Shown piece after piece: positions 22,997 to 31,895 of a stretch of DNA of 64,000 nucleotides. Origin of the DNA: Escherichia coli (GTDB taxonomy: Bacteria > Pseudomonadota > Gammaproteobacteria > Enterobacterales > Enterobacteriaceae). Position 1 is the stretch's first letter, and each line of letters opens with the position of its first letter. The notes beneath the pieces are model-generated. The model saw nothing but the letters and a program-made list of their open reading frames with translations. It was not told where the DNA came from and made no database searches. The stretch lies in assembly GCF_003334765.1 (NCBI RefSeq), contig NZ_QOWT01000002.1, one strand, 5' to 3'. The position numbers and the translations under genes are program-made.

Positions 22997-23064
22997 TTTG
23001 CGATGCGTCGCGCATTTTTGATGTATGTTTCACGCGTTGCATAATTAATGAGATTCAGATCACA
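22997..23064 (+). promoter_or_regulatory. cdd promoter region with two CRP sites (about 22997-23018 and 23049-23064)
   Basis: TGCGA-N6-CGCGCA and TGAGA-N6-TCACA half-site pairs about 50 bp apart upstream of cdd; matches the classical CRP/CytR-regulated cdd promoter. Confidence 0.75.
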
Positions 23065-23123: not shown

Positions 23124-25119
<1,996 letters not shown>

Positions 25120-25203
25120 TATTCCCCTCTCCAGTTAATTATTGAGAATAATTATTACTTCACCTGATAAGCTGCGGATATCACATTCCTAACCGCAGCT
25201 ATT

Positions 25204-25219
25204 TGTGAATCTTTTCACA
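25204..25219 (+). promoter_or_regulatory. Perfect CRP consensus palindrome upstream of preT
   Basis: TGTGA-N6-TCACA about 95 nt upstream of preT start. Confidence 0.6.
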
Positions 25220-25312
25220 GTTTAAATTCCCCCGCACGCTTAGCCTTAATATCAGTACATTATTATTTACTAAACGCTCGCCTTAATTACCTATAGCATT
25301 AAGGAAGATCAC

Positions 25313-26551
25313 ATGCCGCAACAAAATTATCTGGATGAACTCACTCCGGCTTTTACGTCTTTACTGGCGATTAAAGAAGCCTCTCGCTGTTTATTATGTC
25401 ACGACGCTCCCTGTAGTCAGGCTTGCCCGGCACAGACCGATCCGGGGAAATTTATTCGCTCAATCTACTTTCGTAATTTTAAAGGCGCTGCCGAGACAAT
25501 TCGCGAAAATAATGCCCTCGGTGCCGTTTGTGCCAGAGTGTGCCCGACGGAGAAATTATGCCAAAGCGGTTGTACCCGTGCCGGTGTTGATGCTCCCATT
25601 GATATCGGCCGCTTACAGCGTTTTGTTACTGATTTTGAACAACAAACCGGAATGGAAATTTATCAGCCCGGTACTAAAACGCTCGGCAAAGTCGCGATTA
25701 TTGGCGCAGGTCCTGCCGGATTGCAGGCCAGTGTGACACTGACAAACCAGGGTTATGACGTCACGATTTATGAGAAAGAAGCGCACCCCGGTGGCTGGTT
25801 GCGTAACGGTATTCCGCAATTCCGGTTACCGCAATCAGTGCTGGATGCAGAGATCGCCCGTATTGAAAAAATGGGCGTGACCATTAAGTGCAACAACGAA
25901 GTCGGTAACACACTCACCCTTGAGCAGCTGAAAGCAGAAAACCGCGCGGTACTGGTCACCGTGGGGTTATCAAGCGGTTCCGGGCTACCGCTGTTTGAGC
26001 ATAGTGACGTTGAGATTGCCGTCGACTTCTTGCAACGTGCACGACAGGCGCAAGGCGATATCAGCATTCCACAAAGCGCATTAATTATCGGCGGCGGTGA
26101 TGTCGCGATGGACGTAGCCAGCACGCTGAAAGTTCTCGGCTGTCAGGCGGTAACTTGCGTAGCGCGTGAAGAGTTAGATGAGTTTCCGGCAAGCGAAAAA
26201 GAGTTTACCAGCGCCCGGGAGCTGGGCGTTTCGATCATCGATGGATTCACGCCAGTAGCCGTGGAAGGCAATAAAGTCACGTTTAAGCATGTACGGTTAT
26301 CGGGCGAACTGACGATGGCGGCAGATAAAATTATTCTCGCCGTCGGTCAGCATGCCAGACTAGATGCCTTTGCGGAGTTAGAGCCGCAGCGTAACACCAT
26401 CAAAACACAAAATTACCAGACCCGCGACCCGCAAGTCTTTGCTGCTGGCGATATTGTTGAGGGTGACAAAACCGTGGTCTATGCCGTGAAAACCGGGAAA
26501 GAAGCCGCCGAGGCGATTCATCACTATTTAGAGGGAGCTTGCTCATGTTAA
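25313..26551 (+). CDS. preT: NAD-dependent dihydropyrimidine dehydrogenase subunit PreT
   Basis: Fe-S cysteine clusters and GAGPAG FAD/NAD fold. Confidence 0.9.
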
Positions 26552-27780
26552 CGAAAGATCTTTCGATTACTTTTTGCGGCGTGAAGTTTCCCAACCCGTT
26601 CTGCCTCTCTTCTTCGCCGGTAGGCAACTGCTATGAGATGTGTGCCAAAGCCTACGACACAGGTTGGGGCGGTGTGGTGTTTAAAACGATCGGCTTTTTT
26701 ATCGCCAACGAAGTCTCGCCGCGTTTTGATCATCTGGTGAAAGAAGATACCGGTTTTATCGGCTTCAAAAATATGGAGCAGATTGCTGAACATCCGTTGG
26801 AAGAGAATCTGGCCGCCCTGCGTCGGCTGAAGGAAGATTACCCGGACAAAGTATTGATCGCTTCGATCATGGGGGAAAATGAGCAGCAATGGGAGGAGCT
26901 GGCGCGCCTGGTGCAAGAAGCTGGCGCGGATATGATCGAGTGTAACTTCTCCTGTCCGCAAATGACTTCTCATGCGATGGGTAGCGATGTCGGGCAAAGC
27001 CCGGAGCTGGTAGAAAAATATTGTCGGGCAGTGAAACGGGGTTCCACGCTGCCAATGCTGGCGAAGATGACGCCGAATATCGGTGATATGTGCGAAGTGG
27101 CGCTGGCGGCGAAGCGCGGCGGCGCAGATGGCATTGCGGCGATTAACACCGTTAAATCCATCACCAATATCGATCTTAATCAGAAAATCGGTATGCCGAT
27201 CGTTAACGGAAAATCGAGTATTTCCGGATATTCCGGTAAAGCGGTAAAACCGATCGCCCTGCGCTTCATTCAGCAAATGCGCACCCATCCAGAACTGCGC
27301 GATTTCCCAATCAGCGGTATCGGCGGCATTGAAACCTGGGAGGATGCGGCTGAGTTTTTATTGCTCGGCGCAGCAACGTTACAGGTGACCACCGGCATCA
27401 TGCAGTACGGGTATCGGATAGTGGAAGATATGGCAAGCGGGTTGTCGCATTATCTCGCCGATCAGGGATTTGATTCGCTGCAGGAGATGGTAGGTCTGGC
27501 GAATAACAATATTGTCCCGGCGGAAGATTTAGACCGCAGTTATATTGTCTATCCCCGTATCAATCTTGATAAATGTGTTGGCTGTGGACGCTGTTATATT
27601 TCCTGTTACGACGGCGGTCACCAGGCGATGGAATGGAGCGAGAAAACCCGCACACCGCATTGTAATACCGAGAAATGTGTGGGTTGTCTGCTTTGTGGTC
27701 ACGTCTGCCCGGTGGGTTGTATTGAGCTCGGGGAAGTGAAGTTTAAGAAAGGCGAGAAAGAACACCCGGTAACGTTGTAA
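26545..27780 (+). CDS. preA: NAD-dependent dihydropyrimidine dehydrogenase subunit PreA
   Basis: Dihydroorotate-DH-like domain plus C-terminal 4Fe-4S motifs; overlaps preT end. Confidence 0.9.
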
Positions 27781-31879: not shown

Positions 31880-31895
31880 TGTGAAATCACTCACA
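31880..31895 (-). promoter_or_regulatory. CRP site in mgl control region
   Basis: Perfect TGTGA-N6-TCACA between galS and mglB. Confidence 0.7.

Follow-up and report, generated by a model that had tools for sequence, protein, structure and literature searches.

A conserved CRP operator upstream of the preTA operon of Escherichia coli, its putative promoter geometry and an adjoining hairpin

Gene context of the yeiS–preT intergenic region

The window analysed here, a 64-kb stretch of DNA corresponding to E. coli K-12, carries the local gene order cdd-sanA-yeiS-preT-preA, with all five genes on the plus strand according to the RefSeq annotation and the list of open reading frames (Table 1). Downstream of preA comes mglC, on the opposite strand. 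The genes preT and preA (25313..27780) code for the two subunits of NAD-dependent dihydropyrimidine dehydrogenase and form the operon under the CRP site described below. This site and a hairpin next to it both lie within the 193-bp intergenic region separating yeiS from preT. The 441 bases around them match E. coli K-12 MG1655 with 100% identity, and RefSeq gives the same order there, yeiS and then preT.

Open reading frames of at least 20 codons were absent from 25120-25312, an Rfam scan of 24800-25500 at E <= 1 returned no match, and a scan for consensus promoters and terminators made no call within the yeiS–preT intergenic region. Just 3' of yeiS there is a perfect hairpin or palindrome with arms made of A+T only, TAATTATT-GAG-AATAATTA (25136-25154); the embedded TTGAGAATA is also kept in Citrobacter. 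At 25134-41, GTTAATTA resembles an ArcA half-site. Transcripts of preTA were reported to be lower in anaerobic growth (bioRxiv 10.1101/820084).

As to known transcription starts, the list of Kim et al. 2012 includes a weak start of two reads at window position 25085, inside yeiS and 228 nt 5' of preT; therefore, some transcription may run from there across the hairpin and the CRP site. A further yeiS start in the same list falls at window position 24853, inside sanA, and no CRP-dependent preT start is found there.

Table 1. Genes and sequence features around the yeiS–preT intergenic region (window coordinates)
Feature	Position	Strand	Remarks
cdd	23124-24008	+	
sanA	24158-24877	+	upstream of preT, codirectional
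yeiS	24880-25119	+	upstream of preT, codirectional
Hairpin, 8-bp perfect stem AGCTGCGG / CCGCAGCT, 15-nt loop	25170..25200	+	sequence, fold, Escherichia conservation
22-bp CRP operator ATTTGTGAATCTTTTCACAGTT	25201..25222		centre 25211.5; sequence, chance test, RegulonDB/SELEX listing, conservation
TAGCCT, candidate -10 hexamer of a class II preT promoter	25241..25246	+	conserved spacing; putative role
TATTAT, alternative -10 hexamer, class I geometry, CRP at -61.5	25261..25266	+	hexamer match in Escherichia
Weak hairpin CCTTAAT (25281-87) / ATTAAGG (25298-304)	25281..25304	+	sequence conserved in three genera
preT	25313-26551	+	RefSeq annotation of identical K-12 sequence; ORF list
preA	26545-27780	+	RefSeq annotation of identical K-12 sequence; ORF list

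A perfect CRP core that is already on record

The core of the CRP operator, TGTGAATCTTTTCACA, occupies 25204-25219 and is composed of TGTGA (25204-25208), the spacer ATCTTT and TCACA (25215-25219), thus matching the consensus at 10/10 core positions. Reading of the sequence confirmed the coordinates given for this palindrome in the preliminary description, as well as those of the hairpin with its perfect 8-bp stem and 15-nt loop. The distance of "about 95 nt" from the CRP site to preT, also given there, is fine as an approximation: 93 nt separate the 3' end of the core from the ATG at 25313.

Two perfect TGTGA-N6-TCACA sequences are present in the window, against 0.04 +/- 0.2 expected by chance, and none of 100 shuffles contained two. 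The second of them is the CRP site of mglB (31880-31895). When up to two mismatches are allowed, CRP-like matches in the window fall to the chance level (26 vs 24.9 expected). No second CRP-like site with at most two mismatches occurs in the yeiS–preT intergenic region, and a tandem CRP architecture of the CytR type at preT was rejected because the first site has no such neighbour.

The preliminary description had proposed that CRP controls preTA, a claim now supported by an activator row in RegulonDB, by SELEX-chip binding (PMC3105977) and by conservation across genera. It had also taken the site as not established, which turned out to be wrong, as the site is already present both in RegulonDB and in a published SELEX screen (PMC3105977). 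In Table 1 of Shimada et al. 2011 (PLoS One 6:e20081; PMC3105977), yeiT, the former name of preT, appears as a CRP target already included in RegulonDB and is recovered by Genomic SELEX-chip with cAMP-CRP. Table S3 of the same paper places a SELEX peak, "yeiS> >yeiTA", at 2.23195 Mb with the sequence TGTGAAAAGATTCACA, which is the reverse complement of the CRP site; given a preT start at 2,232,055 in these coordinates, the peak maps to about 25208 of the window. Specific SELEX peaks were in general seen only in the presence of cAMP (PMC3105977). Finally, Table S4 of PMC3105977 reproduces the RegulonDB row: yeiTA, activator, -57.5, TGTGAATCTTTTCACA.

The RegulonDB site of yeiTA (preTA) and the one described here are the same object, with an identical 16-mer at an identical locus; the sole disagreement concerns the position relative to the transcription start, -57.5 in RegulonDB and -41.5 in our reading (see below). 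The flanks printed in the yeiTA row of Table S4, aaacgcagctatt...gtttaaattcaaa, differ from those of the genome, aaccgcagctatt...gtttaaattcccc, around the identical 16-mer core; this is probably an artefact of transcription or conversion. The text supplements of the Crp ChIP-exo paper do not contain preT, and CRP is not discussed in the preTA/5-fluorouracil papers examined. In vivo, the CRP dependence of preTA rests on the "activator" label of RegulonDB. Overall, with its listing and its binding in SELEX, the preTA CRP site is an established database entry backed by in vitro binding (RegulonDB, Genomic SELEX). Since the entry is a long-standing one, its confirmation brings nothing new.

Conservation of the CRP operator

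A scan for PreT in species-representative genomes gave 19 orthologous loci from E. coli, E. albertii, E. whittamii, the cryptic Escherichia clades, about 12 Citrobacter species and Pseudocitrobacter. Together with 12 E. coli genome sequences, these loci of Escherichia, Citrobacter and Pseudocitrobacter made up the 31 sequences inspected. A perfect TGTGA-N6-TCACA was found 5' of preT in all 19 loci, with variation confined to the spacer, and both half-sites were unchanged in 31/31 sequences while the flanks diverged. In the alignment across genera, the block CTATTTGTGAATCCTTTCACAG stands out as conserved amid these diverged flanks.

Within E. coli, the 40-bp stretch around the CRP site occurs as a single copy in 5423 of the 5426 complete genomes. 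The alleles sampled, the weakest matches included, carried changes in the spacer (T25213C) or in the flanks and never in the half-sites. The yeiS–preT region is otherwise unusually polymorphic in this species: over 231 bp (25100-25330), identity to K-12 is at least 99% in 1462 genomes and just 80-90% in 3469 genomes. Such a split in identity points to two old allele classes in E. coli. Fixed amid this polymorphism are the CRP half-sites, TAGCCTT and a block around the ribosome-binding sequence. The conservation pattern of the CRP site is the footprint that would be expected of a functional operator.

Putative geometry of the preT promoter

The hexamer TAGCCT follows TCACA after exactly 21 nt in 24 of 25 sequences and after 20 nt in the remaining one. 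The 21 nt in between have diverged, with about 9/21 bases common to K-12 and Citrobacter. With CRP centred at -41.5, TAGCCT would occupy -12 to -7 and transcription would start near 25253. The hexamer matches TATAAT at 3/6 positions and retains T-12, A-11 and T-7.

Two promoters of the same window, those of mglB and cdd, served as internal controls for class II geometry, and in both of them 21 nt separate TCACA from the -10 hexamer. The mglB promoter (CRP core 31880-31895, minus strand) resembles that of preT in its perfect core as well; it differs in having a -10 element, TATGAT, that matches the consensus well, unlike the 3/6 match of TAGCCT, and in being listed with GalS and GalR control in addition. 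The cdd promoter, likewise CRP-activated, has a core with one mismatch (23049-23064) and TAAACT as its -10 element. Both cdd and preTA belong to the nucleoside/pyrimidine catabolism group; however, the RegulonDB rows show a CytR operator set between tandem CRP sites at cdd, whereas preT has a single CRP site and no evident CytR arrangement. The CRP positions given by RegulonDB are -41.5 for mglB and -42.5 for cdd (reproduced in PMC3105977). The conserved spacing of TAGCCT, together with the match of 21 nt to mglB and cdd, leads us to favour a class II promoter for preT, with CRP at -41.5 and a putative start near 25253. As for the invariant non-consensus bases of TAGCCT(T), a different factor binding there would be another possible explanation.

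GCCTTAA is present in two copies in the intergenic region, one in TAGCCTTAA (25241-25249) and one in CGCCTTAATT (25280-25288), and both copies are kept in all three genera, Escherichia, Citrobacter and Pseudocitrobacter. An extra copy of TAGCCTT, 12 nt past the first one, is found in most Citrobacter loci. The GCCTTAA pair could consist of a -10 element and, in the untranslated region, a sequence pairing with it, or else represent sites of an unknown factor.

CRP is competent for activation at distances of -41.5, -61.5, -71.5 and so on; by this spacing dependence, a site centred at -57.5 is neither canonical nor activation-competent. These distances matter for a different reading of the same CRP site, to which we would give somewhat less than an even chance: a class I promoter, in which CRP would touch RNA polymerase at its alpha C-terminal domain, with TATTAT as the -10 element and CRP at -61.5, or with transcription starting at 25269. 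The latter start is the one implied by the -57.5 that RegulonDB records, in disagreement with the -41.5 obtained from TAGCCT, and the spacing dependence of CRP just mentioned weighs against it. In favour of this reading, TATTAT matches the -10 consensus at 5/6 positions and sets the CRP centre at exactly -61.5 in K-12. Hexamers with 4-5 of 6 matches, their offset unchanged or shifted by 1 nt, are found in other Escherichia, but not outside this genus. There, the best-matching hexamers give CRP positions of -64.5 in Pseudocitrobacter and, for the majority of Citrobacter loci, of -67.5/-68.5, with three loci deviating further; these spacings are out of helical phase, which speaks against a class I promoter. 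Reading of the sequence also revealed no usable -35 element for this arrangement, and in about one third of complete E. coli genomes an ERIC element is inserted directly past TATTAT.

The 5' untranslated region and the ERIC insertion

The insertion in question, an ERIC/IRU repeat, lies 3' of the CRP site and 5' of the preT start codon, at the TA corresponding to 25268-69; its length is 125 bp or 203 bp, and truncated forms occur as well. Of 30 rows taken at even spacing from the genome ranking, 11 carry it, which corresponds to approximately one third of complete E. coli genomes, and it is also present in E. albertii and the cryptic clades. We assign the insertion to ERIC on the grounds that AAGTAAGTGACTGGGGTGAGCG and GTGAGTCCCCAGGAGCTTACAT match the ERIC2 and ERIC1R primer sequences; K-12 is free of the insertion, and the ERIC primer sequence is absent from the K-12 window.

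In ERIC-bearing strains the CRP site is perfect; therefore, the promoter is probably located upstream of the insertion, and ERIC is probably transcribed within the 5' untranslated region. The insertion may thus alter this untranslated region and the expression of preTA. We propose, as a tentative possibility only, that the -57.5 of RegulonDB may be wrong and that preTA would have a class II promoter with the invariant, non-canonical -10 element TAGCCT and, where inserted, ERIC within its 5' untranslated region.

Closer to preT, a weak hairpin of 7 bp (25281-25304) overlaps the ribosome-binding sequence AAGGAAG (25301-07). The block forming it, GCCTTAATT...CATTAAGGAAGA, is nearly invariant across the three genera, and the CTTTAAT variant of its 25281-87 arm in Pseudocitrobacter still pairs via G-U. 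The fold of this hairpin (about -4 kcal/mol) is no better than that of shuffled sequences, with z of about +0.6 to +0.7.

The hairpin upstream of the CRP operator

The arms of the upstream hairpin are AGCTGCGG (25170-25177) and CCGCAGCT (25193-25200), enclosing the loop at 25178-25192. The structure begins 50 nt past the stop codon of yeiS, and the 22-bp CRP operator immediately follows it. Five of its 8 bp are G-C pairs, and it folds with -13.5 kcal/mol (z = -4.2 vs shuffles). A perfect 8-bp hairpin with a 3-20 nt loop is no rarity in itself: the window contains 34 of them vs about 17 expected (20 vs about 8 for the subset with G+C-rich stems). Therefore, the hairpin is notable for its intergenic position and its conservation in Escherichia. 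The preliminary description had offered no interpretation of it.

In 12 Escherichia sequences the stem is kept, and the loop is more variable than the stem. One stem pair varies among C-G, U-G, C-A and, in E. albertii, U-A, the last being a compensatory change from C-G; a second pair varies between A-U and G-U. In total, there are two G-U variants and one C-A mismatch. A covariation test on these 12 sequences, with a single compensatory pair, was not significant, since 210/500 shuffles reached the observed score. The sequence of the hairpin is specific to Escherichia and absent from Citrobacter and Pseudocitrobacter, which retain the CRP site. In Citrobacter, a different hairpin, GGGAttAATGCTG...CAGCATTTCCC (-14.2 kcal/mol), is found between yeiS and the CRP site.

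Compared with Rho-independent terminators, the Escherichia hairpin shows a likeness in its G+C-rich 8-bp stem past a stop codon, followed by the U-containing AUUUGUGAAUCUUUU. It differs in its loop, 15 nt vs the typical 3-8, and in the interruption of the U-tract AUUUGUGAAUCUUUU; the terminator scan did not call it. A canonical intrinsic terminator was rejected on these grounds. Most likely, the hairpin is an RNA 3'-end or termination-type structure of the sanA-yeiS transcript.

One might also suppose that the hairpin and the CRP site compose a single DNA module in which the 8-N15-8 inverted repeat is the operator of a second regulator, in the manner of CytR at cdd. The repeat does end where the 22-bp CRP operator begins and is conserved in Escherichia, and the neighbouring cdd is co-regulated by CRP and CytR according to the RegulonDB rows. 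However, the repeat is missing in Citrobacter and Pseudocitrobacter, where the CRP site is kept, and this lack of joint conservation outside Escherichia makes an operator acting at the DNA level less likely. In addition, natural variants of the G-U type keep the RNA pairing while breaking the DNA symmetry, and the CRP site at preT is one, unlike at CytR-type promoters. The arms of the hairpin are also unlike the CytR octamer GTTGCATT. Overall, we consider a joint module improbable: the hairpin is a separate, ordinary element and not a part of the CRP site.

Discussion

Our results make it very probable that the palindrome upstream of preTA is a cAMP-CRP operator acting as an activator site, likely in a class II promoter, with the hairpin being a separate element at the RNA level. 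Hardly any room is left for the idea that CRP binds there as a bystander, at a high-affinity site without effect on preTA: it is true that, according to Shimada et al., some CRP targets in RegulonDB are based on sequence prediction alone (PMC3105977), but the half-sites are unchanged in 31/31 sequences from three genera while the neighbouring bases drift, the spacing to promoter-like elements downstream is fixed, and the RegulonDB annotation is that of an activator.

Hence the following scenario might be depicted. When glucose is scarce, cAMP-CRP would occupy the single near-consensus site at 25204-25219 and activate the dihydropyrimidine dehydrogenase operon preTA (formerly yeiTA). Bound at -41.5, CRP would replace the -35 element and recruit RNA polymerase to TAGCCT (25241-46), with transcription putatively starting near 25253. 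In this way, preTA would join cdd in the catabolite-controlled group of nucleoside and pyrimidine salvage. The hairpin at 25170-25200 would act at the RNA level, ending the sanA-yeiS transcript, and would adjoin the CRP operator by happenstance.

In gut E. coli, the anticancer drug 5-fluorouracil is inactivated by the bacterial dihydropyrimidine dehydrogenase, PreTA (bioRxiv 10.1101/820084), and for this reason the regulation of preTA is of some practical interest. Catabolite control via the CRP site implies that the inactivation of 5-fluorouracil would depend on the carbon source. Beyond the CRP site already known, possible refinements concern the promoter class, i.e., class II at -41.5 vs the recorded -57.5, and the effect that the ERIC polymorphism may have on preTA. 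If it is true that the promoter is of class II and that ERIC lies within the 5' untranslated region, the expression of preTA could be strain-specific, and so could the capacity of gut E. coli to inactivate 5-fluorouracil.
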